Of a DNA stretch of 63,581 nt, positions 4,856 to 44,811 are shown one piece after another (the first letter of the stretch is position 1; each line of letters begins with the position of its first letter). The translations under genes were made by a program, and so were the position numbers. The DNA comes from an uncultured Alphaproteobacteria bacterium (GTDB lineage Bacteria > Pseudomonadota > Alphaproteobacteria > Rickettsiales > UBA1997). Under the pieces are notes generated by a model. The model was not told the origin of the DNA. It searched no databases and saw only the letters and a program-made list of their open reading frames with translations. The stretch lies in NCBI GenBank assembly GCA_903879805.1, contig CAIRMX010000042.1:1-63581 (forward strand), given 5' to 3'.

Positions 4856-5687
4856 CTGCCCGATCCGCAAATTTTTAAAAAAACTTTTTCGCTGCAAAAG
4901 CGAACCGGTTGTCGCTTGTGTCAATTTGCACGGCGTCATCGGCAAAGATTCAAAATTGTCTTCCGGGTTAAATTTTGAAAATGTCGCGCCACTTTTAAAA
5001 CGCGCTTTTGAAATGAAAAAAGTTAAAGCCGTGGCACTTGCAGTTAATTCGCCCGGCGGATCACCGGTTCAATCCGAACTAATTTACAATTACGTTCGCG
5101 AACTTTCTGAAGAGAAAAAAATCCCAGTTTACACTTTCGCCCAAGATGTTGCGGCGTCCGGCGGATACTGGCTGCTTTTGAGTGGCGACGAAGTTTACGC
5201 CCATAATTCTTCAATTCTCGGCTCAATTGGCGTGATTTTTTCGGGCTTTGGTTTTGTTGATTTAATCAAAAAAATCGGCGTCGATCGCCGCGTTTACACG
5301 GAAGGAAAAAACAAAGCGATTCTTGATCCGTTTTTGCCAGAACAAGATGAAAATATTGAGATCTTAAAAGATTGTCAGCGCGACATTTTCGAAGGCTTCA
5401 AAGATTTGGTAAAATCAAGACGCCAAGGCAAATTAAAAGAGTTGGAAGAAAATTTATTTACCGGCGCTTTTTGGTCCGGCAAAAAATCTTTAGAGCTTGG
5501 ACTAATTGACGGCATTTGCGACATGCGTAGCAAACTCAAAGAAAAATTCGGCGCCAGAGTTGAATTAGTTCAAATCACGGCAAAAAAAGGTTTGCTAAAA
5601 AGTTTCTTCTCAGAAAAGTCAAATCTTGCCAACAGCTTACTTAATAAATTTGAAGAACGAATGAGTTTTGGCAAATTTGGACTCTAA
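4833..5687 (+). CDS. S49 family peptidase (SppA/SohB-like)
   Basis: 284 aa. Motifs VNSPGGSPVQSE and DVAASGGYWL are typical of the signal peptide peptidase A 36K type. The ATG overlaps the MFS gene 3' end. Confidence 0.8.
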   Translation: MSNCQTSNCPIRKFLKKLFRCKSEPVVACVNLHGVIGKDSKLSSGLNFENVAPLLKRAFEMKKVKAVALAVNSPGGSPVQSELIYNYVRELSEEKKIPVYTFAQDVAASGGYWLLLSGDEVYAHNSSILGSIGVIFSGFGFVDLIKKIGVDRRVYTEGKNKAILDPFLPEQDENIEILKDCQRDIFEGFKDLVKSRRQGKLKELEENLFTGAFWSGKKSLELGLIDGICDMRSKLKEKFGARVELVQITAKKGLLKSFFSEKSNLANSLLNKFEERMSFGKFGL

Positions 5688-5713
5688 TTTTTTTAACAAA
5701 AAACTTAAAATTT

Positions 5714-5953
5714 ATGGCACAAAATAATCCTTTTGAACAACAGCCAGCTAATCCAGTCATCGACATGGGAAAAATTTCTTCACAAACACCAAACTCCCCA
5801 GATTCACAAAAATTAGTAGGAACTATTGCAAAAGGTTTCTCCGAACCACTACTAAACTGTATGGGCAAGCCAGTTGAGTTTAGCCCATCATCCACAATCG
5901 ATCCATCTACCGTAATTCGAGTTTTACAAAACCTCCCAGAAAAAGGTAAATAA
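5714..5953 (+). CDS. Hypothetical small protein (79 aa)
   Basis: ATG ORF that fills an otherwise empty intergenic gap. No motif recognised. An imperfect hairpin follows it at about 5978-6008. Confidence 0.35.
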   Translation: MAQNNPFEQQPANPVIDMGKISSQTPNSPDSQKLVGTIAKGFSEPLLNCMGKPVEFSPSSTIDPSTVIRVLQNLPEKGK

Positions 5954-6038
5954 AAACACCCAAATCCCTCAATAAACTGGCTTTGCGGCCAAGTTTATTG
6001 CCCACAAAGCAGCAATCCAAATTTTTAACTTTTTAAAC

Positions 6039-7307
6039 ATGAACTTCTTCAAATCTTCCCTCGAAAATTCTGACTCTGCAATTTTCCACTCAATTCAAAA
6101 AGAAACTGACCGCCAAAAATATCAAATCGAATTGATCGCGTCAGAAAATATTGTGAGCAAAGCTGTGCTTGAAGCCCAAGGCTCAATTTTTACCAACAAA
6201 TACGCTGAAGGCTATCCGCAAAAACGCTACTACGGTGGCTGTGAATTTTCTGACGAAATTGAACAAGCCGCAATTGACCGTCTTTGCCAACTTTTTGGTG
6301 CAAAATTTGCTAACGTGCAACCGCACTCTGGCGCTTCTGCGAATTTAGCCGTTTACCTTGCAACCATTCAACCAGGCGACACCATCATGGGAATGTCTTT
6401 GGCAGCTGGTGGACACTTAACTCACGGCGCACAACGCACAATTTCAGGCATGTGGTTTAAATCAGTGCAATATGGAATTCGTTTAGATGACGGCTTGATC
6501 GATTACGATCAAATGGAAGCTTTGGCCCGCGAACATAAACCAAAATTAATTGTCGCTGGAATTTCTTCTTACCCACGCATCGTTGATTGGTCACGTTTTA
6601 GAAAAATAGCTGACGAAGTTGGCGCACTTTTGATGGTTGATATGGCGCACGTTGCGGGTCTTGTTGCCGCTGGCCTTTATCCATCACCAATTGGTGTTGC
6701 TGACATTGTAACTTCAACAACTCACAAAACTTTGCGCGGCCCTCGTGGTGGTGTGATTTTGACAAATAACGAAGAACTGGCGAAAAAAATTAATTCTGCA
6801 GCTTTCCCTGGTCTTCAAGGTGGGCCATTAATGCATGTAATCGCTGCTAAAGCGGTTGCGTTTGCCGAAGCTTTGCGTCCTGAATTTAAAACTTACGCCA
6901 AACAAATCGTCGCCAATGCCAAAGTTTTGTCAGAAGTTTTGATGAAACGCGGCCTAAAAATCACAACTGGTGGCACAGATTGCCACTTGATGGTTGTTGA
7001 TTTGACGCCACTTGAAACTTTAACCGGCAAAGAAGCTGAAAAAGTTTTGGAACGCGCCGGCCTAACCTGCAACAAGAATGCGATTCCAAATGATCCACGT
7101 TCACCTTTCGTAACTTCGGGTCTTCGTTTTGGCACAGCTGCAGGAACTACCCGCGGTTTTAAAGAGAAAGAGTTTGAAAGAATCGGCAACATGATTTGCG
7201 ATTGCCTCGAAGGCTTCGTGAAAAATGGCGAAGAAGGAAATCGCGATTTGGAAACGAAGATGAAGGCAGAAGTTGCAACCCTTTGCAAAGAATTCCCAAT
7301 CTACTAA
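6039..7307 (+). CDS. glyA: Serine hydroxymethyltransferase
   Basis: 422 aa. Motifs [24 protein letters not shown] and the PLP-lysine motif [14 protein letters not shown]. Confidence 0.97.
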
Positions 7308-7323
7308 ATTTGGCCTGCGGCAA

Positions 7324-7385
7324 CGCGCCACAAGGCGCGCGCCATGTTCGTGGGGAACCCCGGTCGTAACGACCTTAATTTTTTT
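7324..7385 (+). terminator. Putative glyA terminator region: a GC hairpin plus a short hairpin with a T-run
   Basis: cgcgcc-acaa-ggcgcg at 7324-7339, then ggtcg-taa-cgacc at 7362-7374 followed by ttaattttttt. The stems are short. Confidence 0.35.
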
Positions 7386-7394
7386 CAAAAAATA

Positions 7395-8066
7395 ATGTCT
7401 GATCCAATAAAGCTCATCACTTCAAAACTTTCACCTTACGGCCACCGCGTTGAGATGGTTTTGATCGAAAAAAATATCCCCTACGAAAAGCAAGACATCT
7501 CTCTGGCGACAAAGCCAGATTGGTTTGCAAAGGACGCGCCTTTGGGCAAAGTTCCCTTGCTTTACGTTGGCGATAAACCGCTTTTTGAATCAATCGCAAT
7601 TTGTGAATATTTGGAAGATGCTTTCCCAGAAAATCCTCTGCATCCAAAAGATGCTTTGATGAAAGGTTGGCATCGCGGTTGGATGGAATTTGCCAGCGGC
7701 ATCACCGCCGGAACTTTGGGCATGATTTTCGCTCAAAATCAGGAAGAATTTGATTTGAAAAAAGTTGAAATCGTCACGCGCCTTGCCGCCATCGACAAGC
7801 ATTTGAAATTCAGCCCTTATTTTGACGGCGAAAAATTCTCTCTAGTTGACGCCTGCATGGCTTCAGCCTTCAAACCGCTGACTTTCATCGACAATAAATT
7901 TACTTTGGAAATTTTTGATCTTTACAAAACCGCCGCAACTTACGTTGAAAGTGTAGTTGCACGCGGATCTTTGCACAAAGCACTTCCGGATGATTATGAA
8001 AGTTTATTCAAAGGCTTACTTGAAAGAAAAAAATCTCACCTGTTGACGATGAGCTTTAGCTTGTAG
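7395..8066 (+). CDS. Glutathione S-transferase family protein
   Basis: Thioredoxin-like N-terminal GST fold (SPYGHRVEMVLIEKNIPYE, LGKVPLL, ESIAICEYLED). The start is taken at the internal ATG (MSDPIKL); the ORF is open from 7344. Confidence 0.8.
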   Translation: MSDPIKLITSKLSPYGHRVEMVLIEKNIPYEKQDISLATKPDWFAKDAPLGKVPLLYVGDKPLFESIAICEYLEDAFPENPLHPKDALMKGWHRGWMEFASGITAGTLGMIFAQNQEEFDLKKVEIVTRLAAIDKHLKFSPYFDGEKFSLVDACMASAFKPLTFIDNKFTLEIFDLYKTAATYVESVVARGSLHKALPDDYESLFKGLLERKKSHLLTMSFSL

Positions 8067-8096
8067 ATAGTCTCTAGCAATCGCAGCAAAATATTT

Positions 8097-8137
8097 AAAC
8101 CCCGCGCGCTCAGGAAGTTCGCGGGGTTTCACTTTTT
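8097..8137 (+). terminator. Rho-independent terminator after the GST gene
   Basis: 10-bp stem aaaccccgcg / cgcggggttt (8097-8106 with 8120-8129), followed by cacttttt. Confidence 0.7.
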
Positions 8138-8150
8138 AAAAAATAAAAAC

Positions 8151-9341
8151 ATGAAAATCGCCAACACCAAATTAAAAATTAAACGCCACAACGAACTTAG
8201 AGTCGTCAAAGGCCATCCGTGGATTTTCTCCAACGAGATCGAAAATTTCCCTTCACTAAAAGGCCTCGAAAAAGGCTCAGTTGTTACAGTTCAAATCAAT
8301 AAAGATGACGATTTCGCTGTCGCTTATTTCAACTCACACAGCTTGATCGCAGCGCGCATTTTAACTTACGATTTAAGCCAAGAAATTGATGAGGCTTTTT
8401 TCATTGAAAGAATTTCTGACGCTCTTGCTTTGCGTGAAAAATTCTTCGACAAACCTTTTTACCGCTTAATTCACTCGGAAGCTGATTTTTTACCAGGCCT
8501 TGTGGTTGATCGCTTTGGCGATATTTTTTCTTGCCAAATTTCTACCGCCGGAATGGAAAAACTTTCTCCACTTTTAATCGCTGCACTCGAAAAACTTTTC
8601 CCAAAAGCTGCGATTTTTTTTAGAAATGATGTTGAAAGCAGAAAGTTTGAAGGCTTGGAACTCTTCAGCAAAACCATCAAAGGCGAAATTGCCGACTCAA
8701 TTGAAATTGAAGAAAATGGCTTGAAATTTGCGGTTGATGTCAAAGGCGGCCAAAAGACCGGCTGGTTTTTTGACCAAAGAGAAAATCGCAAATTTATCGG
8801 CACACTAGCCAAAGATTGCACCGTGCTTGACGCCTTTTGTTACCAAGGTGGATTCGGTATTAACGCTTTGAAAAATGGCGCTAAATCTGTGACTTTTATT
8901 GATTCATCGGAAGATGCTTTGGCACATTTAAAAACCAATTTGGCGCTCAATGATCTCGATCAGTATTCAGAAATTATTTGCGACAAAGTTTACGACATTT
9001 TGGAAAATCCACAATTTCAAGAAAGAGAATTTGACATCGTGCTGCTTGATCCGCCAGCTTTTGTAAAATCGAAAAAAGATTTTTTTGTTGGCTTAAAAGG
9101 TTACGAAAAATTGGTAAAACTTTCGGCAAAATTGGTAAAGAAAAATGGCATTTTGATGCTGACTTCATGCTCGCACAACGCGACTTTGAGTGATTTGTTA
9201 GCTGCTGCAAATGACGGATTCCGTAAGGCGAATCGCAAGGCAAAATTGATTCGCACGTCTGGCGCGGGGTTCGATCATCCGATTAATCCGGCTTTGAAGG
9301 AAAGTGAATATTTGAAATCGATTACGTTTTTGGTAGAATAG
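8151..9341 (+). CDS. rlmI: Class I SAM-dependent rRNA methyltransferase with PUA domain (RlmI-like, 23S m5C)
   Basis: 396 aa. N-terminal PUA-like region (VKGHPWIFSNEI), SAM motif VLDAFCYQGGFG, and motif IV IVLLDPPAF. Confidence 0.8.
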   Translation: MKIANTKLKIKRHNELRVVKGHPWIFSNEIENFPSLKGLEKGSVVTVQINKDDDFAVAYFNSHSLIAARILTYDLSQEIDEAFFIERISDALALREKFFDKPFYRLIHSEADFLPGLVVDRFGDIFSCQISTAGMEKLSPLLIAALEKLFPKAAIFFRNDVESRKFEGLELFSKTIKGEIADSIEIEENGLKFAVDVKGGQKTGWFFDQRENRKFIGTLAKDCTVLDAFCYQGGFGINALKNGAKSVTFIDSSEDALAHLKTNLALNDLDQYSEIICDKVYDILENPQFQEREFDIVLLDPPAFVKSKKDFFVGLKGYEKLVKLSAKLVKKNGILMLTSCSHNATLSDLLAAANDGFRKANRKAKLIRTSGAGFDHPINPALKESEYLKSITFLVE

Positions 9342-9380
9342 AAGAACTTTGTTTTAAAAAAACAAAATCTCCGAACTCCT

Positions 9381-12300
9381 TTGCTACAGCTAAGGAGTTC
9401 TTATCACTCAAAATTGTTCTTATATGCTAAAAAAAAGAACGGTTTCACGCTACTAGAGGCTGCTGTTGTTCTCGTGATAATAGGAGTAATCGCTGCCGGA
9501 GTCTTTGCCGGCACCAAGCTTGTAAAAAAATTTAAAATTGCTGCAGCGCAAAATCTAACCTTATCTTCACCAGTACATGGAATTACTGATTGGATATTAT
9601 GGTTAGAAAGTAGTATGGATCAGAGTTTCAACGAGTCAGAAAGTAATAACAGCTCTTCACTCACCGCTTGGTATGATTTAAAGAACAGTGCTGCCAAAAA
9701 TAATGCCATTCAATCCTCTTCGCCAAACAGTCCGATCTATTCCAACAGTATTAATTATATCCAAGCCGTAAAATTCGATGGTACTAACTCTTATCTAGAT
9801 GTTGACGGTTCAGGGCTAAATAATACCGACTACACAATCATCATTCTCGAACAAAGAGATAGCGATAAAAACGGCAATTATTTTATCGGCGACGTCTCCT
9901 CAGCCAACGATTCAATTACTAACCGTAATCTGACTTTGGGCTATAGCGCGGACGGCAATATTCGTCATTCACAATCTAGCGACAATGTCTATACCGCCGC
10001 AGTTTCTCCCTATTCAGACTCTTTGGAAAAACCAAGAATCTTCACTTTTACTCGCAACAAATTAACCGGAAAAAAAATCTATGTTAACGGCATACTTGCC
10101 GCAACCAGCTCTGACACCAACAACCTTTCCAACTTATCCTCTATTAAAATTGGCAAAGATTATAATGGCCAGATTGGTGAAATAGTAATGTTTGCCCGTA
10201 ACCTCGAAGATGAAGAAAGAAAATCGATTGAAGATTATTTAGGCAAAAAATGGAACAGCCCAATCCTAAGATCAGTAGCTGGCGGCTCTTGCACCAATGG
10301 CATGATTACTCTTACCGGATGCACCGCAACCTGCAGCATTCCAAGTGGCACCGCCGGAATATTATCTACTTCAGTTTCTGATGGATCAGGCTCTCTAACC
10401 TGCAATACTTCCAATCACTTTATCGGATCTCTTTCTTACACTTGCTCTAATAGTATACTAACCTTTAGCGGCGCCTCTTCATGTGCGTGCGACAGCGGTT
10501 ATTATTTGCAAAGTGGTAGCTGTGTGCCAAACACCTGCTCAGTTCCAACGACTACAGGAATATCTGCCACTTCTGTGGCTGATGGTTCGGGTTCTCTAAC
10601 CTGCGACACCTCAGCACATTTCACCGGATCACTTCCTTACACTTGCTCTAGTACTAATTTAACACTTACGGGTGCCTCATCTTGTGCATGTGCCTCAGGC
10701 TATTATTTACAAGGCAGTAGTTGCCTTCCAAATGGTTGCAGCGTTAGCATCACAGGTGCTAGCACTACGTCAGTCTCCCTAGCTTCTGGAACATTTAGTT
10801 GCGACCAATCCGGCTATTCAGGAACCATCACTTACACCTGTGGCTCTGGAACTTTTGATACACTTTATGCCTGCGCCAGCGGCAGCTCGACCCCGCAATG
10901 CAGCGGCGGCACGATTGATACCAGCACGGTAAGCGGATCCGTGATTCACAAATTTACATCTTCCGGCTCCCTAACCTGCTCTTCATCAAGATCAGCGCAA
11001 GTATTAGTAGTTGGTGGTGGCGCCTCTGGCGGTGCTGCAATAGCTCAAGGTGGCGGTGGTGGTGGTGGCGGTGGTGGCGTTGTTTATAGCTCATCTTATC
11101 CAGTTGGCACCTCAGCAATTTCAGTAACTGTTGGCGCCGGTGGTACTTCTGTGGCTACAAGAAGTAACGGAAATAACGGTGCTAATTCAGTATTTGGAAC
11201 CATGACTGCTCTTGGCGGTGGCTACGGAGGAACTTGGAATGGTTCCACCACCACAAATGGTAATACTGGCGGATCTGGTGGTGGCGGAGGTGGCGCGTTT
11301 GGCGCATCTGGTGGATCTACAACCCAAACTGCTCAAACTAATGGCACCAGCTTTTATGGTAGCGCCGGTGGAACACCTATCAGCTCCAATCCTTACAATG
11401 CTGCCGGTGGCGGTGGTGCGGGTGGCGCGGGTGGAAATTCCAACGCGACAAATGGTGGAATTGGAGGAAATGGTATCTCTCACTCAATTAGCGGAAATGC
11501 TGTAACTTACGCAGCTGGCGGCGGCGGAAGTGGTGGTAACAGCAACAGAGCTGGTGGCGCTGGTGGGTCTTCCGGCCTTGGTGGCGCGGGTGGTACTGCT
11601 TACAGCACATCGAATGCTGGTGGCACCGGATCTTCGGCTGGCGGCTCTGCCGGTAATGGTGGTGGCGGATCTAACAATAATTCTTCGGGTGCTGGAAGTA
11701 ACGGGATAGTAATCGTACGTTACATTGGCAGCTCAGTATCTTGTCCAAGTGGCTATTCATTATCTGGCTCAAATTGCATAAAATCATGCAACGTCTCAGT
11801 TGCGGGTGTCTCAACTTCATCCGTCACTGCGGGAAGCGGCTCTCTATCTTGCGATGCCGCAGGATATACTGGCTCGGTAAGCTATACCTGCCCTTCTTCA
11901 GGAACATTAAGCACCACCGGTTCATGCGCTTGCGCTACCGGATATACCGGCTCTAGCTGTAGTAGCTGTGCCAGCGGATATTCTATGGTCAGCGGCACCT
12001 GCCAAGTCAGCTGCTCTTCAGGATCTATAGTTGGTGTCAATACCACCACAGTCGCTGCTGGAACCGGTTCCTTGCCTTGCAACGCTACCAACTTCAACAG
12101 CGCAACTTCAATTAATTATTCATGCTCGGGCGGCAGTTTTTCTGTGACATCAGGCACCTGTAATAGCTGCGCTTCGGGATACACTTTTGCCTCAAATCAA
12201 TGCTACCAAAATTGCACTATTAGTGGCATTAACGGAATTACCGCAGGCACCCCAGTAAATCACGGCAGTACTTCAATTACCTGTAACGCTTCAGGATATG

Positions 12301-13175
12301 TCGGAACCGTCAATTATACCTGTAACAATGCTTCATTTGCCCAAACTAGTGGATCATGCACGCTTTCTCCAGCTTGCACCGGCGGCACTATCGATACCTC
12401 TTCGGTTCCGAGATCAACCATTCATAGATTTACCTCAGCTGGAACTTTGACTTGTACAGCCACAAAAACTGGTGTGCAAATTCTGGTTGTAGGTGGTGGC
12501 GGTGGCGGCGGTAGCCATAGCTCAACACTTGGTGGTGGTGGCGCTGGCGGCGGCGTTGTTTCTGTTGTAAGCGCCTCTTTAAATGCAGCATCTTATTCGA
12601 TCACTATTGGTAATGGCGGCAATGGCGGTGGCGGTGGCTGCGGTAGTGCTGGTGGAAGTGGTATTAATAGCACATTATCTGGCAGCGGCATGTCAATCAC
12701 TGCCTATGGTGGCGGTGGTGGCGGCGGATGTAATCAAGGCAATGGTTCTAATGGTGGCTCAGTTGGTGGACATTCTTGTAACTCAAGCGGAGGAAGCGCT
12801 TCACAAGGTGCTGCTAGCGGAACTGGCGGCTCAGTTACTCTTTACGGAAATATCAGCGCCTCAACTGCACTATGCTCTAGCGGCAATGGTACGGCTGGTG
12901 GTGGTGGCGCTGGCGGAGCAAGTTCTGGACCTTCCGGCAATACTGCAGGCGCCGGTGGCGCCGGATTAAGCAATTTAATCACCGGAATCTCTCAAGTTTA
13001 TGGCTCGGGTGGCGGTGGACAAGGCACTAGCGGGGCTGCGGGGGGCACGAATGCCGGAACGGGAAAAAGTGGAGGCGGCCGAACAGGAGGTGGAGCGGGT
13101 ACTGATAACTTTGGCGGCGGTGGCGGTGGCGGCGGTGGCGTGGGAGGCTCAGGCGTGGTAATTATTCGCTACTAA
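9381..13175 (+). CDS. Giant prepilin-leader protein, paralog 1: LamG domain, then two copies of a supermodule made of a four-Cys repeat array plus a glycine-rich domain
   Basis: 1264 aa. Class III signal KKKNG|FTLLEAAVVLVIIGVIAAGVFAG. LamG-like signature at about 9633-10266 (TAWYDL, VKFDGTNSYLDV, DYTIIILE, IYVNGIL, GQIGEIVMFARNLEDEERKSIEDYLGKKW). Gly-rich domains lie at about 10899-11722 and 12375-13172, each ending G(I/V)VI(V/I)RY. The start is uncertain: TTG at 9381 or TTG at 9414. AAGGAG lies at 9392-9397. Confidence 0.85.
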   Translation: MLQLRSSYHSKLFLYAKKKNGFTLLEAAVVLVIIGVIAAGVFAGTKLVKKFKIAAAQNLTLSSPVHGITDWILWLESSMDQSFNESESNNSSSLTAWYDLKNSAAKNNAIQSSSPNSPIYSNSINYIQAVKFDGTNSYLDVDGSGLNNTDYTIIILEQRDSDKNGNYFIGDVSSANDSITNRNLTLGYSADGNIRHSQSSDNVYTAAVSPYSDSLEKPRIFTFTRNKLTGKKIYVNGILAATSSDTNNLSNLSSIKIGKDYNGQIGEIVMFARNLEDEERKSIEDYLGKKWNSPILRSVAGGSCTNGMITLTGCTATCSIPSGTAGILSTSVSDGSGSLTCNTSNHFIGSLSYTCSNSILTFSGASSCACDSGYYLQSGSCVPNTCSVPTTTGISATSVADGSGSLTCDTSAHFTGSLPYTCSSTNLTLTGASSCACASGYYLQGSSCLPNGCSVSITGASTTSVSLASGTFSCDQSGYSGTITYTCGSGTFDTLYACASGSSTPQCSGGTIDTSTVSGSVIHKFTSSGSLTCSSSRSAQVLVVGGGASGGAAIAQGGGGGGGGGGVVYSSSYPVGTSAISVTVGAGGTSVATRSNGNNGANSVFGTMTALGGGYGGTWNGSTTTNGNTGGSGGGGGGAFGASGGSTTQTAQTNGTSFYGSAGGTPISSNPYNAAGGGGAGGAGGNSNATNGGIGGNGISHSISGNAVTYAAGGGGSGGNSNRAGGAGGSSGLGGAGGTAYSTSNAGGTGSSAGGSAGNGGGGSNNNSSGAGSNGIVIVRYIGSSVSCPSGYSLSGSNCIKSCNVSVAGVSTSSVTAGSGSLSCDAAGYTGSVSYTCPSSGTLSTTGSCACATGYTGSSCSSCASGYSMVSGTCQVSCSSGSIVGVNTTTVAAGTGSLPCNATNFNSATSINYSCSGGSFSVTSGTCNSCASGYTFASNQCYQNCTISGINGITAGTPVNHGSTSITCNASGYVGTVNYTCNNASFAQTSGSCTLSPACTGGTIDTSSVPRSTIHRFTSAGTLTCTATKTGVQILVVGGGGGGGSHSSTLGGGGAGGGVVSVVSASLNAASYSITIGNGGNGGGGGCGSAGGSGINSTLSGSGMSITAYGGGGGGGCNQGNGSNGGSVGGHSCNSSGGSASQGAASGTGGSVTLYGNISASTALCSSGNGTAGGGGAGGASSGPSGNTAGAGGAGLSNLITGISQVYGSGGGGQGTSGAAGGTNAGTGKSGGGRTGGGAGTDNFGGGGGGGGGVGGSGVVIIRY

Positions 13176-15938: not shown

Positions 15939-16730
15939 ATGCTTTCAACCAATCAAATCCGCACAAAATTTCTCGATTATTTCGCAGCCAATGGTCACGA
16001 GATTGTCGCATCTTCATCTTTAGTGCCGCATAACGACCCGACTTTGATGTTCACCAATGCGGGCATGAATCAGTTTAAAAATTATTTCACCGGCGTTGAA
16101 GTGCCAAAAGTTAAACGCGCCGTAACTTCACAAAAATGTGTACGCGCTGGTGGCAAACATAATGATCTCGACAATGTTGGTTTCACCGCTCGTCACCATA
16201 CTTTTTTTGAAATGTTGGGCAATTTTTCTTTCGGCGATTATTTCAAAGAAGAAGCCATTTTTTACGCTTGGAATTTTTTAACCAAAGAGCTCGAGATCAA
16301 CAAAGACAAGCTTTTGGTCACTGTTTATCACAATGATGACGTGGCTGCCGATTTCTGGAAAAAGATCGCCGGACTGCCCCAAGAAAAAATCATCCGCATC
16401 GCAACTGACGACAATTTTTGGTCAATGGGCGATGTAGGACCATGCGGCCCTTGCTCAGAAATTTTTTATGACCACGGCGATAAAATTTTCGGCGATGTGC
16501 CCGGTAGCAAAGACCAAGATGGCGATCGTTTTATTGAAATTTGGAATTTGGTTTTCATGCAATTTGAAAAACACAAAGATGGCAAAATGATCGAATTGCC
16601 AAAACCCTGCATCGACACCGGCATGGGTTTGGAGCGCTTAACATCTGTGTTGCAAGGAGTTCACGATAATTACGAAACTGATAGCTTCAGAAAGTTAATT
16701 TCTGAAATTCGTGCTTTGGGCGTTGCTTGA
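15939..16730 (+). CDS. alaS: Alanine--tRNA ligase, N-terminal catalytic-core fragment only (263 of about 880 aa). Either a split gene or a truncated remnant.
   Basis: Colinear with the AlaRS N-terminus: [74 protein letters not shown], and motif 3 DTGMGLERL. The ORF stops about 20 aa after motif 3. No continuation exists in any frame; the next 1.4 kb is a convergent ankyrin gene. Confidence 0.8.
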
Positions 16731-18161
16731 ACAACCCCTTCCACCAGCATTAAATGAAAATTGATTTAATCGAGATCCGTCTAATTTTCTGACAAAATTT
16801 GCCTCATCAACAGGAGTGCATTTAAAAACTGTCCCAGGAAGTACCCTCTGAGAATCTCTTGACGGCAGATCTTTTTCTCTTTGCTGCACCTGATCTCTAC
16901 CTTCAGAAGAAGCCGTAGGAATTCTCTCAATCATCTCTCTCAAACTTGGATTTGCAGTGATTACCGCATTTCTGGTATCTGGATTTGCCCGCTCTGACAA
17001 AATTGCCGTTAAAGAATTATTGCCACTCGCCGCCGCAATTTCCACGACCGTTCTAACGCCATCTTCTTTGTGATTAACATTAGCACCATAGCGCACCAAT
17101 AAAAGCGCCAGAGTTGCTTGTCCATTTTGCACAGCAGAAGTAAGCATTGAATCCAAACCTTTCTCGCTCAAAGAAATTCCTAAAATTTGCTCTAAGGCCG
17201 TTCTCTCTGTTGATCTATCTTGTTTTGGCGCTTGCGATTGCTCTTTTGCAGTTTCGACAATTTGGGTTTTTTCCTTTTCTGATTCTTGTGAAATCTTAGC
17301 CTGAGCTTGCTCAGCTTCCTTCTTTGCAGCTCGCTCTTTTTGATTTGCTGCAGCTTGTCTTCTCAAATTATCACGAATTTGCAACATGCCGATTTGGTGA
17401 AATTCTAACGCAATTCCTGCTTCGATAATTTGACTTTGCTCTCTGGCTTGGCGCTGCACTTCTTTCTCAGCTGCTTGCTCTTGTGCGTTTGGCTTAGAAT
17501 CGCCGCCACTTTGTTGTTCTTGTTTTTTTGTACCAATTTCTCGACCACCTCTTTCGCGGCCTCGACCACCTTCTTCTCTTTCTATTTCACTTTTTTTATT
17601 GCCCGCATCTTTGAAATCTTTTTTGGGAATATTAACTCCGGCTTCCACCAATTTTTCTAAATCTGCCGCTTTAGCCAAATCATTCTTTCCCGAAATCATC
17701 GTTGCAGCCACTGGGCTTAAGCCATTTTCACCCACCTCATTAAGCTTTTTTCCCAGATTATATTTGTCTAAAAAATCTGAAAATTCCTTCTTGGTTTTAT
17801 CTATCGGCTTGTTGGAAGCACATGAAATAATAAAAATTTCCTGCGCTAATTTTTCAACGCGCTGTTCTCTTGCTTTTCTTTCTTTGCGTTTTTTTTCCTC
17901 TTCTTCGCGCGTTCCTTCTGTGGTTGTTTCTTGTGCTTTTTCTTTAGTGACCTGCTCTTCCATTTGACGAAGTTCTTGCACATATTCCCGCGACTTTCTT
18001 GGCAACGCCTCCAATATTTGCACGACTTTTGGATTTGCTTCTTTTGGATTTGGCAAAACAAAATCAGCCGCCGAAAAACTCGCAGCAAAATCTTTTAAAT
18101 CTGTCAGATTTTGCGCAAATTCTAAATCTTCTTCCTGTGAAAATGGATTAGATTTTGTCAT
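16695..18161 (-). CDS. Ankyrin-repeat protein with long E/K/R/Q-rich charged regions
   Basis: 488 aa. ANK-like units [32 protein letters not shown] and [57 protein letters not shown]. The ATG overlaps the lysK 3' end by 14 nt. Confidence 0.75.
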
Positions 18162-19722: not shown

Positions 19723-19725
19723 AAT

Positions 19726-21039: not shown

Positions 21040-21852
21040 TAGATTACCGTCAAAAACAAACCCAACTCGTCAGCTTTTCTAATCACCTCAGCCTTATCTA
21101 AAACCAACGTAGAGTTAGCTTGAATCGCAATGCCACCAATTCCCGAGGCAAATGCGTTTTTAATCGTTTCAACACCAATCGTTGGCATATCTGCTTTCAT
21201 GCTTTGTTTGGCTTTTTTCATTTTCAACAACACCGCATCTTTTTTGTAATCAACTTTCAAAGTGGCACATCTTTTAATCATCTCGTCAGTGCCTTCCAGC
21301 GCTTCCACCGCAATGATTTGCTTTTGTGCAATTACTAAAGATTGCCCAACATCAAAATTAGAAAATGACTTAATCGCCTTCACACCAAGCGCAATATCTT
21401 CGAGATTTTCTTTACTTGGCTGATGGCGGGTAAGCGTTGATTTTGCTGAGATCACACAATCTAACAACTCATCAATTCGCAAAATTTTTAAACCTTCTTT
21501 TTCAAAAAATTTAATCACTGCACGTAAAACCGCGTCATCTCCCAAAATTTTATTAGCTAAAATTTTAGCCAGCAAAACCGCGCCACGCTTATCTACTTTT
21601 AGTGACGAAAAATTTGGTTTAGTAACGCCACCAATAAAAACTAAATTCTTAATTTCATTTTGATGAATCGCTGCCAAGAATTTTTCAACCTCGCCATAGC
21701 CCACAGTTATTGGGTTAAAAGCCGAGTAATCAATTTCATAAACCTCACCTTCCAGCAAAAATACTAAAAATTTGCGACCTTTTTTTTGGCAATCTTCAAT
21801 CAACATTTTTGGCAAAGATCCGCGTCCGGCGAAAATTGCAAGTGAACCCAAA

Positions 21853-21863
<11 letters not shown>
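21039..21863 (-). CDS. lpxI: UDP-2,3-diacylglucosamine pyrophosphatase LpxI (DUF1009 family)
   Basis: 274 aa. Motifs LAIFAGRGSLP, FIGGVTKP, DVGQSLVIAQKQIIAVEALEGTDEMI and GIGGIAI. The stop overlaps the cca start. Confidence 0.8.
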
Positions 21864-24344
<2,481 letters not shown>

Positions 24345-35698: not shown

Positions 35699-38005
35699 CT
35701 AGTAACGCACTATTACGACACCACTTCCACCTTTAGAGCCCGCAATATCCTGACTTGGCGCACCGCCACCGCCAGCACCAAGGCCGTCAGTTCCAGCCAC
35801 ACCGACATTGCCGCCACCTCCCAAACCGCCAGTGCCGTTGCTGCCGCCTGAGTTATAATAACTAGAAGCTCCACCACCGCCATAATAAGTAGCCGTTCCG
35901 GTTATGCTATTTTGTATGCCGACTCCACCATTGCCACCCTTAGTACTTGAACCATTTTGTCCGGCACCTCCAGCACCGCCGCCGCCACCACCACCATAGT
36001 TAGGAGCAGATGAAGAATTGTTTCCTCCGGCATATCCTTGACCACTAGTTGCAGTACCACCGTTTTTCGAAGACCCAGAAATTCCTCCCCCACCGCCAGA
36101 GCCTCCTGAAGGTGCCGGAGTAGTATCTGCCTGACGAGCACCACCACCGCCACCGCCAATTGCTGTCAAAGATGAAGAAAATAAAGAATTTTCGCCATTG
36201 CTTCCCACCAAATTTGGAAAAGATCCACCCGTTGAAGCACTGCCATTTCCACCCGAGCCCACCGTGACTGTAATAGGAGCAGTAACCGAAAAAGAGCTGT
36301 TATAAATAACTCCACCTGCTCCTCCGCCAGATCCTCCAGCACCCCCAGCTCCTCCGCTACCGCCGCCACCACCAGCAACCACTAACACTTGCACTGACTT
36401 TGTGGCAGGACAGGTGAAGGTATAAGTTCCAACCGTCATAAATTTAAAAATCGTAGATCCCGGCACTGACGTTGTATCAGCGCTTGGGGCACCAGTACCA
36501 CTGACTGAACAAGAACCTCCCAAAACACATGTGGAACCGGATAAACTATATCCCGAAGCGCAAGCACAAGTTCCAACCGAAGATAAAGTTCCATTATTGC
36601 AGCTGTAAGTAACATCTGCAGTTCCGCTAAAATTAGTGCCGTTACAGATAAAACTTCCACTAGCCTGATGTGCAACTGTAGTAGGAGTAGAAACTCCCGT
36701 AACTGCTGTAGTAGAGCAAGATGATCCCAAAACGCACGAACCACCTGATTCAACATATCCGCCCGCCGTGTTGCAAGCGCACGCTCCGCCGTAGCTCGCA
36801 GTACCATTGCTGCAACTGTATGAAACTGTCCCTGTGTAACCCGTAACATTGCAAGTCATGCTGCCAGTAGCGCCACTGGCAACTGAGCTAGTATTTGTCG
36901 ATCCAGTCAAACTAAGTGTGCATGGAATAGTCGGAGTGCAGCTTCCGCTAACACTCGCTGTGCCGCTGATACAAGTGTAACTAACAGATCCCGAATAGTT
37001 GGTCTGGTTACAAGCAATTGAGGTTGAAGATGAAGTGGCGGCAACTGTAGCGCTAATCCCAGCTTGGCTGATGGAACAAGTCGCAGAAGCTAAATCGCAT
37101 CCAGAATCAGTAATTGTATATCCAACACATGAGCCGCTTGGTGCTGAAGCTCTGTTGATTGAACGAGTCCATTTCTTACCAGCGTAATCTTCAATTGGTT
37201 GTCTTTCTTCGGGCTTTAAAGCGCGGGCGTAAATCGCGATTTCTCCGATTTCTCCGGTGTAGCCTTTGCCAATTGCAAGTGAAGTAATGCCAGAAAGGTG
37301 AGCGGTTTTAGTCGCATCCTGCGCGGCTAAAATACCGTTGATGTAAGTTGAATTTCCCGCTGTTGAGCTGTGAACAAATGTGAATTGACGTGGCTTATCG
37401 GTTGAAGATGCGTAAGAGCTAACCGATGCACCAGTGGCGTAAGATTGATTTCCTTGAGCGTGAATCACTGTTGAGTCTGAACCGTAACCTAAAGCTAAGC
37501 TAGTATTGGGACTTCCTGAAGTTTCTCCGATAAAATAATTGTTACTGGCAGAGCTTTGTCTCTTCTCCAGAACCATGATTGTGTAGTCGGTGCCGTTTAA
37601 AAACGAAGCATCCGAGATTTGCAAATAGTTCGCCGTACTTCCGTCAAACTTAATCGCGTGAACGTGATTGATGGTGTTTGCGTAAGTTGGACCGGTTCCC
37701 ACCGCAACCACTAAAGGTTTAGCAGCATTGCTACTTTGATCATACCAAGCAGTTACTGCGGCACCATCACTTGCTTGCGAGCTGTCGATACTGGCACTTA
37801 AGCTAGTTTCTAGCCACAGCATATTATCTTTGATTCCGGGAACTGGCGAAGAGCGAGCTAGAGATTCTGCGGCGGCTAAACGTGATTTTGCAATTATACG
37901 AGTTCCGATGAAGGTTCCCGAAATCATAATGCCGATGATTAAGATAATTACCGAGAGTTCGATGAGGGTGAAGGCACGCGACTTATAATGTTTTTTATAC
38001 TTCAT
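35699..38005 (-). CDS. Giant prepilin-leader protein, paralog 2: LamG, four-Cys repeats and one glycine-rich domain
   Basis: 768 aa. Leader MKYKKHYKSRA|FTLIELSVIILIIGIMISG. LamG at about 37159-37768 (TAWYDQ, IKFDGSTANYLQI, DYTIMVLEKRQ, GKGYTGEIGEIAIYARALKPEERQPIEDYAGKKW). Cys repeats at about 36506-37132. Gly-rich domain at about 35702-36505, ending GSGVVIVRY. Confidence 0.85.
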   Translation of the reverse strand: MKYKKHYKSRAFTLIELSVIILIIGIMISGTFIGTRIIAKSRLAAAESLARSSPVPGIKDNMLWLETSLSASIDSSQASDGAAVTAWYDQSSNAAKPLVVAVGTGPTYANTINHVHAIKFDGSTANYLQISDASFLNGTDYTIMVLEKRQSSASNNYFIGETSGSPNTSLALGYGSDSTVIHAQGNQSYATGASVSSYASSTDKPRQFTFVHSSTAGNSTYINGILAAQDATKTAHLSGITSLAIGKGYTGEIGEIAIYARALKPEERQPIEDYAGKKWTRSINRASAPSGSCVGYTITDSGCDLASATCSISQAGISATVAATSSSTSIACNQTNYSGSVSYTCISGTASVSGSCTPTIPCTLSLTGSTNTSSVASGATGSMTCNVTGYTGTVSYSCSNGTASYGGACACNTAGGYVESGGSCVLGSSCSTTAVTGVSTPTTVAHQASGSFICNGTNFSGTADVTYSCNNGTLSSVGTCACASGYSLSGSTCVLGGSCSVSGTGAPSADTTSVPGSTIFKFMTVGTYTFTCPATKSVQVLVVAGGGGGSGGAGGAGGSGGGAGGVIYNSSFSVTAPITVTVGSGGNGSASTGGSFPNLVGSNGENSLFSSSLTAIGGGGGGARQADTTPAPSGGSGGGGGISGSSKNGGTATSGQGYAGGNNSSSAPNYGGGGGGGAGGAGQNGSSTKGGNGGVGIQNSITGTATYYGGGGASSYYNSGGSNGTGGLGGGGNVGVAGTDGLGAGGGGAPSQDIAGSKGGSGVVIVRY

Positions 38006-39697: not shown

Positions 39698-39788
39698 GGG
39701 ATTTTTTAAAGAGAAAAAGGATGTGAAAATTTTCAGGCGCATTTAAAAAGCGCAGGTCGCAAAAGTCAATCAATCGAGTTCCTAAATA

Positions 39789-42048: not shown

Positions 42049-44811
42049 CTAAGATCTTGGGTAGAGAATAATCACAACCCCACTACCTCCATTGCCACCT
42101 ATTATTGAAGTGGTGTCTGTGCTATATCCAGCAGCTCCGCCTCCACCGCCAGTATTTGCTAAGCCATTGCCTGCTTTTACTGATGTTGAAGTTCCGTTTC
42201 CGCCTCCGCCACTTGAGGCAGTTCCGCCGCTTCCGCTTCCATTTCTTACGCCGCCACCACCGCCACTCGCAAACCAGCCACTATTGCCAACGGAAGTTCC
42301 AAATGTTGAGCTGTAATTAACTCCCGATCCCCCATTGCCACCAACTGTACTTGAAGCATTAGCACCAACAGATCCGGCGCCGCCACCGCCGCCAGCTAGG
42401 TAACTTCCGTCGCTGTAACCATTTCCACCATTATTGCCTTGACCAGAGGTGCCTGTTCCAACTACAGAACTGCCAGTGTTTTGTTCAGCGGCTCTACCGC
42501 CACCTGATCCGCCATTTTTATTGCCTGAAGGTGTAGCTCCGCCGTGATAGCCACCTCCACCCCCACCAACTGCTGTTAGTTTTTGCGTTACTGTATTAAC
42601 ATCAAATACTGAATTAGTTCCCACTTTTCCATCTTGTCCAGAGGTATTCCATCCACTTCCACCAGCGCCACCAGATCCCACTGTTATTGAATAGCTAGAA
42701 GCACTTAAAGCGTAACTTGATTGATATATTAATCCTCCAGCTCCACCGCCTCCGCCTATTACGCCACCACCACCGCCACCGCCAGCTACAACAAGAATCT
42801 TAGCGGTTTTAGTTGTGGTACAAGTTAAAGTTCCTGACGAGGTGAATTGGTGCAGAGTGTAAGTAGTTCCTGATATTGTTGGAGTAGTAATTGTTCCTCC
42901 GGTACAATCGACTCCTGCAGTAGCTGCAACCGCCGAACTAGTATTCGAAGAAACCGCTGAAGAAGTTCCGCCAGAACCCGTCGCCGTAACTTTACAAAGT
43001 AGAGTGCGCCCAACGTCTCCTGAAACCGGAGCGTAACTCGAAGAAGTAGCTCCAGAAATCGCCGCCGGAGTGCCATCCGCCCGCCACCATTGGTAAGTGT
43101 AGCTCGATGGCGAACCTGACCAAGTTCCAGTAGTTACCGTAACTGCAGTGCCAACTACTGGAGAAGTCGAAGAAAGCGCCGGAGCAACACTGTTAGTTGG
43201 AGGATTTGTAACCGCCGACGTCGCATTGGAGGAGGCTGGGGATGTTGAAGTTCCACCCGCGTTAGTTGCAGAAACTTTACAAATCAGCGTGTGTCCTGCG
43301 TCCCCCGAAACCGGAGTGTAACTTGAAGAAGTAGCTCCAGAAATCGCCGCAGGAGTACCATCCGACCACCACCAAGCGTAAGTGTAACTAGTTGGAGTTG
43401 GCGACCAAGTTCCAGTACTTGAAACGCTAATCGCAGTACCAACCGCAGCAGAGCTGGCAGATAGTGTAGGCGCAACGCTGTTAGTTGGAGCTGAGAGAGT
43501 GCAAGTTCCAGTAATCGTCGCAGATCCACTTGTTGTGCAAGTGTAAGACGGAGCTGGTGAGGTGCTTGCCGTGTAATTTGTTGCGCAAGGAGAAGAAAGT
43601 GCTGTCGCGCTTGCCGCATAAGCAAGACCGGCTTGGTCGTTAAAGCCAGTAACGCTGGTGATTGTGCAAGTAGTAGCCGTGCAAGCACTTGGAGAGGCAT
43701 GTAGATCCCCGCCATAACAGTTGTAAGCAATCGTACCAGAATATCCCAGCGAAGTGTTACAGGCTAGGTTTCCCGTTGCTCCGTCAACCACTGAGCTTGG
43801 TGTTGAAACTCCAGTCACGCTCACAGTGCAAGAATTGTCACATCCACTGCTTGCAGAATCGGTAACAGTTCCGTTGAGGCAGCTTGGGTTGGCGCTAGTG
43901 TCGCTACTACTTTCTCCAGTGATTCCACTACTGCTGACAACACTGCGATTAAGTTTTCTGGTCCATTTCTTCCCGATGTAATCTTCAATTACTTTTCTGT
44001 CGGGGATGGGAAGAGCTTTGGTAAAAATTGCAATCTCACCGATTTCTCCAGTGTAGCCTTTGCCAATTGCCAGAGTTGTTACTCCAGAAAGTAGTGCGGT
44101 TTTACTAGTATCTTGTGCAGCTAAAGTTCCGTTAATGTAAGTCTTCTGACCTTCAGTTGAGCTTTGAGTGAAGACAAAGAGTCTTGGAGTTTCGGTTGAG
44201 TTAGCGTAAGCGCTTACCTTCGGAGTTACGGTGTAATTTGTAGAATTGTGACTGTGCGCAATGACCCCGTCACTGGCGTAACCAATGGCTAGTTTGTCGT
44301 CGACAACATCACTGGTGTCAGTGGTGCTTAAAAAATTTCCAGCATTTGCCGCCTGTCTTTTTTCTAGAACCACAATCGTGTAATCAGTTCCGTTTAAGAA
44401 GCTGGCATCAGCGATTTTTAAATAGTTGGCAGTGCTTCCGGAGAATTTTACCGCATGAACGTAGTTGATTGTGTTGGCGTAAGTTGGGCCGGTTCCAACT
44501 TTGGTGATTGATGATTTATCTCCCGCAACTTTCTGGTCAGTCCAAGTGCTAATGGCAGAAGTGTCATTACTTTCTGAATCTAAGAAGCTGTCTTCCAAGC
44601 TACTTTCTAGCCAAAGAGCGTTACTACTTATTCCAGAGATTGGAGAGGATTTGGTTAGATTTTGTGCGGCTTGGATGCGGAATTTTTTGACTAGGGAAAT
44701 ACCAGCGAATACTCCGGCGATTAGGATGCCGATGATGATAAGGACGACTGAAACTTCGACGAGGGAGAAAGCTCGATGGCGAGGATTTAAAGGCTTTTGA
44801 GATTTTAACAT
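42049..44811 (-). CDS. Giant prepilin-leader protein, paralog 3: LamG, Cys repeats, two 96-aa Ig-like tandem repeats and one glycine-rich domain
   Basis: 920 aa. Leader MLKSQKPLNPRHRA|FSLVEVSVVLIIIGILIAG. LamG at about 43957-44559, very similar to paralog 2 (TGPTYANTINYVHAVKFSGSTANYLKI, DYTIVVLEKRQ, GKGYTGEIGEIAIF). Gly-rich domain at about 42052-42906 (HQFTSSGTLTC...KILVVAGGGGGGG...GGSGVVIILY). Confidence 0.85.
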   Translation of the reverse strand: MLKSQKPLNPRHRAFSLVEVSVVLIIIGILIAGVFAGISLVKKFRIQAAQNLTKSSPISGISSNALWLESSLEDSFLDSESNDTSAISTWTDQKVAGDKSSITKVGTGPTYANTINYVHAVKFSGSTANYLKIADASFLNGTDYTIVVLEKRQAANAGNFLSTTDTSDVVDDKLAIGYASDGVIAHSHNSTNYTVTPKVSAYANSTETPRLFVFTQSSTEGQKTYINGTLAAQDTSKTALLSGVTTLAIGKGYTGEIGEIAIFTKALPIPDRKVIEDYIGKKWTRKLNRSVVSSSGITGESSSDTSANPSCLNGTVTDSASSGCDNSCTVSVTGVSTPSSVVDGATGNLACNTSLGYSGTIAYNCYGGDLHASPSACTATTCTITSVTGFNDQAGLAYAASATALSSPCATNYTASTSPAPSYTCTTSGSATITGTCTLSAPTNSVAPTLSASSAAVGTAISVSSTGTWSPTPTSYTYAWWWSDGTPAAISGATSSSYTPVSGDAGHTLICKVSATNAGGTSTSPASSNATSAVTNPPTNSVAPALSSTSPVVGTAVTVTTGTWSGSPSSYTYQWWRADGTPAAISGATSSSYAPVSGDVGRTLLCKVTATGSGGTSSAVSSNTSSAVAATAGVDCTGGTITTPTISGTTYTLHQFTSSGTLTCTTTKTAKILVVAGGGGGGGVIGGGGGAGGLIYQSSYALSASSYSITVGSGGAGGSGWNTSGQDGKVGTNSVFDVNTVTQKLTAVGGGGGGYHGGATPSGNKNGGSGGGRAAEQNTGSSVVGTGTSGQGNNGGNGYSDGSYLAGGGGGAGSVGANASSTVGGNGGSGVNYSSTFGTSVGNSGWFASGGGGGVRNGSGSGGTASSGGGGNGTSTSVKAGNGLANTGGGGGAAGYSTDTTSIIGGNGGSGVVIILYPRS
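42922..43488 (-). repeat. Tandem 288-bp (96-aa) coding repeat, two copies, inside paralog 3
   Basis: Copy 1: PTNSVAPTLSASSAAVGTAISVSSTGTWSPTPTSYTYAWWWSDGTPAAISGATSSSYTPVSGDAGHTLICKVSATNAGGTS. Copy 2: PTNSVAPALSSTSPVVGTAVTVTTGTWSGSPSSYTYQWWRADGTPAAISGATSSSYAPVSGDVGRTLLCKVTATGSGGTS. Confidence 0.85.

Follow-up and report, generated by a model that had tools for sequence, protein, structure and literature searches.

A candidate modular type IV pilin-like adhesin with LamG, cysteine-rich and phage-type glycine-rich modules in an uncultured alphaproteobacterium

A stretch of 63,581 nucleotides from an uncultured alphaproteobacterium (Rickettsiales, UBA1997; GenBank assembly GCA_903879805.1, contig CAIRMX010000042.1, positions 1 to 63,581; the whole stretch is called the window below) was examined for the large open reading frame (ORF) that begins at position 9381, the product of which is named protein A; two related genes of the window code for paralogs B and C. 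Protein A combines a class III (prepilin-type) signal and a hydrophobic helix with a LamG module, two Cys-rich arrays and two glycine-rich domains of the TG type (Table 1), and it was read as a modular type IV pilin-like adhesin, with a probability of about 0.55 for this reading as a whole. Cleavage of the leader, entry into a fibre, export across the outer membrane, ligand binding and adhesion are predicted by analogy, because of what is known of class III signals (PMC10191384), of modular pilins (PMC8179133) and of PilC of Streptococcus sanguinis (PMC9934059). The features of protein A lie far beyond chance, since the hidden Markov model (HMM) E-values go down to 1e-30, the structural models are confident and the homologs are conserved. 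The combination that was found, N_methyl + Laminin_G_3 + Gly_rich_2 (twice), falls within the definition of modular pilins (Raynaud et al. 2021, PMC8179133), and protein A is probably a pilus-displayed adhesin of a new sort.

Reading frame, class III signal and LamG module

The ORF was found at exactly the position (9381..13175, forward strand) given in the original prediction; its product of 1264 aa contains 20.6% Gly, 17.6% Ser, 10% Thr and 3.6% Cys (46 Cys), and the sequence is present verbatim on two public contigs (longest 69,617 bp). Two starts are candidates, the annotated TTG at 9381 and an in-frame TTG at 9414; the latter gives the shorter leader MFLYAKKKNG and has AGGAG upstream at 9394–9398. 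The N-terminus reads KKKNG↓FTLLEAAVVLVIIGVIAAGVFAG (KKKNG↓FTLLE at the junction; the arrow marks the predicted cleavage site), with cleavage predicted at G21↓F22 (nt 9441–9446) and E26 at position +5; the site is followed by a hydrophobic stretch, and the helix reaches the conserved SSP motif (aa 62–64).

The class III layout that had been read off the letters scored above threshold with two profiles, Pfam N_methyl (PF07963; 27.5 bits, cut-off 21.2) and TIGR02532 (20.6 bits, cut-off 16.3), and family-wide Glu+5 was invariant and Phe+1 nearly so. By the accepted rule class III leaders end in Gly or Ala (PMC10191384); in agreement with it the leaders of A (...AKKKNG↓F), B (...KSRA↓F) and C (...RHRA↓F) are basic and end in a small residue. 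The whole of protein A contains a single transmembrane-like segment (mean Kyte-Doolittle value 2.7 over 19 aa), and the number of Cys is even in every module (array 1, Gly domain 1, array 2, Gly domain 2: 18, 2, 20, 6), which fits an exported, disulfide-bonded protein.

Laminin_G_3 (PF13385; cut-off 27.6) was detected when the N-terminal 259 aa of protein A were scanned alone (33.4 bits) and in paralog B (35.5 bits), and was unreported when the whole of protein A was scanned; together with the structural matches given below this bears out the LamG/concanavalin-like signature noted earlier. The motifs LWLES, TxWYD, LNNTDYT, GxIGEI and EDYLGKKW and a C-terminal helix are conserved in the LamG module of protein A (invariant alignment columns). 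Two AlphaFold2 models were obtained, one of full-length paralog B (28 sequences) and one of residues 788–1264 of protein A. The model of paralog B (mean pLDDT 83) contains a lone helix (14–51), a beta-sandwich (61–260), a C-terminal helix (265–278), small beta modules (297–498) and a distal domain (500–768; pLDDT >90) that is mostly neither helix nor strand. When this model was compared with the Protein Data Bank (PDB) by Foldseek, domains of the concanavalin A (ConA)/LamG type dominated: Hc-N of tetanus toxin (TeNT; 8e-7), botulinum Hc-N, AbnA domain 4 (TMt 0.68) and the lectin domain of trans-sialidase were matched by the LamG part, and the tailspike of cyanopodophage Pan3 was at rank 11; a sequence search of the PDB gave noise only (E >0.4). 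By analogy the LamG module of protein A may bind glycans.

Cysteine-rich arrays and glycine-rich domains

Each supermodule of protein A, i.e. a Cys-rich array followed by a Gly domain, contains three Cys units of 54–75 aa with a four-Cys core (spacing about 22/13/12) that is usually followed by a CxC...C hairpin; the four-Cys core had been described correctly beforehand, the size of about 50 aa had been set too low. In array 1 the core is present in all three units and the hairpin in the first two, the DNA of units 1 and 2 shows 72% identity (period 201 nt), and no significant Pfam match was obtained; array 2 has laminin-EGF-like CxC segments, for which EGF_laminin scored 21.3 bits (cut-off 21), and is joined to Gly domain 1 by the linker IGSSVS. 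The units were modelled as small beta modules (pLDDT about 80 for the type of array 1, 70–90 for array 2). Their spacing is CCP-like; only weak CCP/sushi matches were given by Foldseek (Crry, E 0.4; CR1 CCP15-17, E 1.2), and the units were assigned neither to the sushi/CCP nor to the EGF-like modules.

The Gly domains contain 32% Gly and 11 glycine-rich motifs (domain 1) and 36% Gly, 13 glycine-rich motifs and four extra Cys (domain 2). Gly_rich_2 (PF21722; cut-off 24.3) was found in all three proteins (A, 107.7 bits in two stretches; B, 92.3 bits; C, 65.0 bits), so that N_methyl, Laminin_G_3 and Gly_rich_2, the searches proposed for protein A at the outset, were all above their cut-offs. There are 61 invariant columns, 42 of them Gly, and an identity of 39% at non-Gly positions; the glycines are conserved and the loops variable, as in Pam3 gp24. 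The latter, a fibre protein of cyanophage Pam3, has 12 glycine-rich motifs in a lattice and variable distal loops that were proposed to bind the receptor, and it resembles S16 gp38 and ALK (PMC9608196). In the model of residues 788–1264 (pLDDT 82, pTM 0.65) the Gly domain is mostly above 90 and, by DSSP, non-alpha/non-beta with framing strands.

Without LamG, the best Foldseek matches in the PDB were the tail-tip chains Qb/Qa of mycobacteriophage Bxb1 (9d93; E 4.7e-5, TMt 0.51, 22% identity), followed by the Pam3 fibre (7ypx_A), the GRD of an invertebrate ALK and the TG domain of LTK. Against predicted viral structures (BFVD) 188 matches were obtained at E ≤1e-3 (30–38% identity), among them proteins of cyanophages (S-TIM4, 4e-16), a pelagiphage, Halorubrum phage HF2 and viruses of Micromonas and Bathycoccus; phrog_2295 (function unknown) matched protein A at 2e-63. 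The earlier statement that domains of this kind sit on phage tail fibres was thereby strongly confirmed, and the structure prediction and Foldseek comparison suggested for this part, carried out on B and on residues 788–1264 of A, led to phage receptor-binding tips. The TG domain, TNF-like plus polyglycine, is a homolog both of the tips with which phage fibres bind receptors and of the domain that binds ligands in ALK/LTK. Because the short leader is the only cytoplasmic part of protein A, a receptor function like that of ALK was rejected.

The supermodule occurs twice, as had been predicted, and the second copy ends at 13172 as stated; the end of the first is 11723, not 11722. The two copies of protein A are 44% identical, the second is 44–52% identical to every other copy, and the four Gly domains of the window are 47–52% identical pairwise; the internal duplication is therefore old and dates back as far as the paralogs do. 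That the second supermodule came from an assembly chimera was rejected on three grounds: its identity of only 44–52% to the other copies, the occurrence of two Gly domains in other family members, and the verbatim 1264-aa sequence on two public contigs.

A viral derivation was also considered, in which protein A would be a tail-fibre or receptor-binding gene left in the chromosome, or a decoy of a phage receptor, and no cellular adhesin. Viral proteins very commonly carry the Gly domain; phrog_2295 aligns from LamG through the Gly domain (residues 84–768 of B); and the 1037-aa protein of viral contig L009 (IMGVR_UViG_3300042892_004242, 5583–8696) has two LamG, a Gly_rich_2-type domain and a C-terminal LamG with the motifs of the bacterial family. 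However, A, B, C and every homolog examined lie amid housekeeping genes with no phage genes near, and phage fibres have no class III signal, which here is the most conserved part; the disulfide-rich build with paired Cys also fits an exported cellular protein. A tblastn search of 50,697 phage genomes with paralog B gave no match, the Gly domain being probably masked by the low-complexity filter, and by this search cultured phages hold no close full-length relative. Only the distal domains of protein A are common to viral proteins, which does not make it a phage tail fibre, and prophage origin was rejected on the housekeeping context and the class III signal peptide; a viral gene is a most improbable explanation.

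Further viral proteins were observed. A 592-aa fibre-like protein on viral contig L010 ends in the same Gly domain as protein A, and the 1037-aa gene of L009 has as neighbour a LamG-containing ORF of 747 aa (8714–10957); both modules are common to the L009 virus and the bacterium, in a different order. Pattern scans of viral contigs yielded no usable census (LamG patterns, 1 locus; Gly patterns, >600 stretches, of which 1 was confirmed by tblastn). In some family members (L006, 10004–12664; P0014, P0024) a second glycine-rich domain was seen that opens with YVVLTSG/IYLTSGTTWTVPAG...IGGGGGG and closes with G(A/I)VVIKF(F/W), and that is distinct from the ...VLVVGGGG / GIVIVRY type.

Protein family, pilus machinery and genomic context

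A word-indexed search gave 38 homologs of 35–60% identity, all without names; when the first 300 aa of paralog B were searched exhaustively, 3998 representatives were found with E ≤1e-3, 1862 with E ≤1e-10 and 284 with E ≤1e-30. Family size is stated here as clusters at 50% identity, of which at least 284 are defined by the N-terminal module. Protein A had been presented as founding a family of three paralogs; the family is large, and A is one of many members. Cluster members are labelled by IMG as prepilin-type N-terminal cleavage/methylation domain-containing proteins. The family signature is A↓FSLIE: in the 100 representatives with a detectable signal, position −1 is occupied by Ala (87), Gly (12) or Ser (1) and position +1 by Phe in 97 cases; Glu+5 was invariant wherever the N-terminus was present, and Gly14 is conserved along with Phe+1, Glu+5 and the small residue at −1. 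Most members, paralogs B and C included, thus have Ala at −1, unlike the Gly of protein A.

A Pfam census of 59 members gave N_methyl in 30, Laminin_G_3 in 26, Gly_rich_2 in 19 and DUF285 in 8, and ALK_LTK_GRD (9e-21), SUEL_Lectin, PAN_1 and PKD in one each; several members of 280–300 aa, complete genes within their contigs, stop 2–6 residues past the LamG helix. Signal, helix and LamG are therefore the constant part, and the adhesion- or lectin-type modules the variable one. In the species-representative genomes scanned, the hosts were only uncultured freshwater Alphaproteobacteria or metagenome-assembled genomes (MAGs) named 'Rickettsiales bacterium', one of which carries at least 5 copies.

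Components of a pilus machinery were found in related genomes. In L006 (a Rickettsiales MAG) a 567-aa ATPase (T2SSE, 413 bits; MshEN/T2SSE_N domain) is encoded 7 kb downstream of a family member and is 42% identical to Escherichia coli GspE and 37% to HofB. In L015 and L016 the homolog closest to A, P0001, has 8 kb upstream of it the gene for a 252-aa PilD-like protein (L015, 1311–2069, forward strand); this PilD-like protein contains a full A24_N_bact domain (methyltransferase-type; 75 bits, cut-off 23) with the motif CxxC...CxxC. Its 351 homologs (67–97% identity; P0202–P0321 among them) come from MAGs of Rickettsiales and Alphaproteobacteria and are named prepilin peptidase or A24 family peptidase by their sources, and one copy shares a 316-kb contig with family member P0005. 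The C-terminal half has an invariant Asp in each of TDFTHKxFP and FDYTK, the first of which aligns weakly with the catalytic-Asp motif of GspO; phmmer and blastp gave no match between the L015 protein and E. coli GspO, and hhalign a weak one (E 0.087). The protein may be a diverged prepilin peptidase matched to Ala(−1) substrates. Basal aquatic Rickettsiales have been reported to encode type IV pili (PMC9352585; bioRxiv 10.1101/2023.01.31.526412).

A pseudopilus of the type II secretion system, or another filament outside the type IVa pili (MSHA- or Com-like), with protein A as tip or component in a short surface-exposed cap for adhesion or substrate capture, was judged unlikely. The weak best-named NCBIfam matches are to the N-termini of GspH and GspG, but these concern a generic 25-residue motif and are far under the equivalog cut-offs (19.5 against 80 and 15.4 against 88.85). 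The L006 ATPase is nearer to GspE than to HofB and has the MshEN/T2SSE_N domain, and the family keeps Glu5, unlike a capping subunit of the GspK/PilK type (PMC10191384); on the other hand, no gsp operon was present in any relative locus examined, and the isolated position of the ATPase gene amid housekeeping genes is reminiscent of the scattered layout of type IVa pili (PMC10191384).

Several points weigh against the pilin-like reading. There is no canonical pilin head: in the model of paralog B the helix passes straight into LamG, which stands where the head would be, with no separate four-strand pilin sheet, and no pilin structure was among the Foldseek matches of that model in the PDB. N_methyl in paralog B (20.1 bits) is just below the cut-off of 21.2. 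In the window neither type IV filament genes nor small pilins were found (ORFs ≥150 aa; scan for class III signals), and in the loci examined the family genes are solitary amid housekeeping genes and never in a pilus operon. For minor pilins it is unusual that one genome has three to five or more large paralogs. The C-terminal half of the PilD-like protein is unrecognised as Peptidase_A24 by Pfam, and its peptidase activity is putative.

The missing head, the window without pilus genes or small pilins, the solitary genes, the unrecognisable peptidase half and the many paralogs would all suit the principal rival, a membrane-anchored ectoprotein in which the pilin N-terminus, cleaved or not, is a signal-anchor only and the LamG, stalk and TG modules stand on the inner membrane and span the periplasm, or reach the surface by another route, with no polymerisation. 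Such an anchor is possible and is disfavoured here. Strict conservation of Phe+1, Glu+5, Gly14 and a small −1 residue across the representatives of hundreds of clusters is hard to explain for an anchor, and Glu5 in a transmembrane helix is a feature of filament assembly (PMC10191384). The distal modules are of lectin and adhesin types, normally surface-exposed, and TG is a receptor binder in phages (PMC9608196); in a diderm with lipopolysaccharide (LpxI is encoded in the window) a periplasmic site for lectin and TG modules makes little sense. In addition, PilD-like and PilB-like genes are kept in related genomes.

On the pilin-like reading the following course may be proposed. The hydrophobic helix would insert protein A into the inner membrane with the basic leader in the cytoplasm; the leader would be trimmed by the conserved PilD-like peptidase (at G↓F in protein A and, for the majority of its relatives, at A↓F); and the Glu5 helix would dock the subunit in a type IV filament, a pilus or a short pseudopilus, driven by an ATPase of the PilB/GspE type. 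The filament would take the bulky ectodomain across the outer membrane, with display most likely at or near the tip, where LamG (glycans) and the variable loops between the glycine-rich motifs of TG may bind receptors on particles, prey or eukaryotic partners; the paralogs would supply differing specificities.

A more far-reaching version is doubtful: helix + LamG as a new class of filament subunit in which LamG replaces the pilin head; Ala↓Phe processing by a diverged peptidase of the lineage; minimal members (about 280–300 aa) as the core and long paralogs as interchangeable tip adhesins, their TG domains exchanged with phages and algal viruses; and attachment of free-living or episymbiotic Rickettsiales-like cells to eukaryotic or algal partners.

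If protein A is carried on type IV filaments, the principle of modular pilins would extend to diderm, uncultured and possibly host-interacting alphaproteobacteria, a pilin head would be replaceable outright by a lectin fold, and one polyglycine receptor-binding module would be common to cells and viruses and also to metazoan ALK/LTK. The large family with swappable distal modules would therefore be a natural library of binding specificities. It would also offer a handle on partner contact by basal Rickettsiales-like bacteria, which bears on the origin of host association in the order, and the PilD-like enzyme with its unrecognisable peptidase half, set beside Ala(−1)-dominated substrates, is a case for the study of protease-substrate co-evolution.

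The three paralogs of the window announced in the original prediction were found to share one plan. Paralog B is identical to public protein P0019, and paralog C is present verbatim in public data; C scored 25.7 bits with N_methyl (cut-off 21.2), and its Ig-like repeats are of the SCAB-Ig/AIR9 type, with a match to phrog_26223 there. The remaining ORFs of ≥150 aa in the window are housekeeping genes (LeuC, SHMT, GST, RlmI-like, NadA, TrpRS, class I LysRS, LpxI, Obg, SdhA, FabF, AddA, LysA, CarB-N, NusB, RimM, TrmD, SerA/C/B-like, AspRS, CoaX, RNase J) or, in four cases, lack a confident Pfam family; none of the window ORFs other than A, B and C has a class III signal. No match in the window was obtained by tblastn when the E. 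coli proteins GspC-O, HofB/C and PpdD served as queries, and this result and the ORFs agree with the earlier statement that pilB, pilC, pilD, pilQ and gsp genes are absent from it.

Table 1. Features of protein A and its paralogs (positions in the window; ↓, predicted cleavage).
Feature	Position	Strand	Extent and basis
Promoter-like site TTGAAA-16 nt-TAGAAT (TG-extended)	9312..9339	+	Consensus match; such sites regionally no more numerous than chance
Protein A, whole ORF	9381..13175	+	1264 aa; range with stop
Class III (prepilin-type) signal and alpha-1 helix	9381..9572	+	HMM scores; transmembrane-like window
LamG / concanavalin A-like beta-sandwich	9576..10271	+	About aa 66–297; Laminin_G_3, Foldseek
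Cys-rich array 1	10290..10898	+	aa 304–506, 18 Cys; N-terminal Cys pair and units 318–385, 386–452, 453–506
Gly-rich (TG-type) domain 1	10899..11723	+	aa 507–781; CSGGTIDTS...IHKFTSSG...QVLVVGGG to GIVIVRY
Cys-rich array 2	11742..12374	+	aa 788–998, 20 Cys; units 803–877, 878–944, 945–998
Gly-rich (TG-type) domain 2	12375..13172	+	aa 999–1264; CTGGTIDTS...IHRFTSAG...QILVVGGGG to GVVIIRY
Paralog B	35699..38005	−	768 aa; SRA↓FTLIE signal, LamG, three Cys units, one Gly domain
Paralog C	42049..44811	−	920 aa; HRA↓FSLVE signal, LamG, two Cys units, two Ig-like repeats, one Gly domain

Other observations concern the neighbouring genes. The alaS ORF (15939–16730, forward strand) ends after 263 aa and covers positions 1–256 of the 552-position class II AlaRS core profile, with no continuation in any forward frame; beside it, on the reverse strand (16695–18161), a highly charged protein of 488 aa with an ankyrin-like segment (Ank_2, E 0.005) is encoded. 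The region could be a disrupted or split alaS, an inserted eukaryote-like effector gene or an assembly join. The CarB-like ORF (38045–39742, reverse strand; 565 aa, CPSase_L D1-D2-D3) corresponds to the N-terminal half of the large chain of carbamoyl-phosphate synthase, and carB appears split or truncated here, between paralog B and nusB. Class I LysRS (tRNA-synt_1f; 18148–19722) and LpxI (21039–21863), both on the reverse strand, are consistent with a lipopolysaccharide-bearing alphaproteobacterium, and with the genes for Ser, Leu, Lys and NAD biosynthesis the genome looks metabolically competent and not reduced. Two ORFs of equal length (237 aa, at 32744 and 33741) were tried as possible paralogs and proved unrelated.

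In the related loci the following was noted. Downstream of the family gene of L006 (13275–13646, 13876–14619 and 16439–17023, forward strand) a Cys-unit fragment and two signal-less LamG-type ORFs with family motifs (TWYDQSGN; GYIGEIIIFERALKDDDRKIVERYLGEKW) are present, which may be gene remnants or cassette-like spare modules. The closest homologs of A were found in L013, L015 (GCA_013572995.1, JACCDX01...), L016 (GCA_013565615.1) and L017 (GCA_013565735.1), where contig numbers exceed 1 million; the assemblies are probably of the bulk metagenome or eukaryote-host kind. In L015 a giant ORF (18510–22142, reverse strand) lies 6 kb from the family member; its product of 3085 aa runs off the locus and has no Pfam match. 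L014 (1–595 and 7730–8551) has type I-F CRISPR genes (Csy3, Csy4) at its edge and a DsbA-family oxidoreductase gene 1.5 kb upstream of P0018, which may be relevant to the folding of Cys-rich proteins or a coincidence.

Comparison with known systems

Modular pilins have been described before, with N_methyl + PF13385 as one of their 15 commonest architectures (PMC8179133); the N_methyl + LamG plan is thus known and frequent, mostly uncharacterised, and the TG fold is known from phages and from ALK/LTK. In the full-text searches made, no pilin-signal protein with TG domains or CCP/EGF-like stalks was met, and searches on PF21722 / Gly_rich_2 and on pilins with a polyglycine or glycine-rich domain returned nothing relevant. 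The statement that no characterised example of this architecture is known agrees with the literature, in which no characterised family of the kind was found, the N_methyl + LamG part having been recognised already (PMC8179133). The plan of protein A is a new form of modular pilin within a large lineage-specific family that extends beyond three genes.

The nearest characterised relatives in design are PilC of S. sanguinis (short pilin, Ig-like and ConA-like lectin parts), which is located at the tip and binds glycans (PMC9934059), and PilB of the same species (pilin + vWA). Protein A has in common with these modular pilins a class III signal with Glu5, an unusually reduced pilin moiety, a lectin-fold module of the ConA/LamG type and grafted adhesion domains of non-pilus origin (PMC8179133, PMC9934059). 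In the family of protein A, however, LamG comes directly after the helix, and the model shows no residual pilin beta-sheet; the proteins belong to a diderm alphaproteobacterium, not a monoderm; Ala predominates at −1; the build is enlarged by Cys-rich stalks of CCP/EGF-like type and by one or two TG domains of phage type; and the genes are dispersed, multi-copy and outside a pil operon.

The distal domains compare best with phage tips (Pam3 gp24, 7ypx; Salmonella phage S16 gp38; Bxb1 Qa/Qb, 9d93; Pan3 tailspike, 9vyh): the fold is the same (E 4.7e-5 to 4.5e-3, TMt about 0.5, 22% identity), Gly_rich_2 is shared, 11–13 glycine-rich motifs stand against 12 in Pam3, a Gly scaffold bears variable loops, and the position is C-terminal or distal. 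The phage proteins differ in being phage-encoded, often trimeric and chaperone-dependent, with N-termini for attachment to baseplate or fibre, whereas the domain of protein A is found in tandem, after disulfide-rich modules, on a cellular protein with a pilin signal.

The TG supradomain of ALK/LTK (PF12810; 7lir, 7nx1) likewise has a TNF-like beta core with polyglycine helices, adjoins EGF-like Cys-rich modules and has a ligand-binding role; one member of the family of protein A scores with ALK_LTK_GRD (9e-21). ALK and LTK, however, belong to the receptor kinases of metazoa; the match in fold is weaker than with the phage tips (E about 0.02, a partial alignment of 120–160 columns), and no cytoplasmic signalling domain is present here.

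Finally, other bacterial proteins with a prepilin signal and LamG (IPR012902 + PF13385), mostly uncharacterised, have the same N-terminal plan and the same automatic annotation; from these the family of protein A is set apart by a signature of its own (A↓FSLIE, LWLESS, TxWYDQS, LNNTDYT, EDYLGKKW) and by distal modules of its own.

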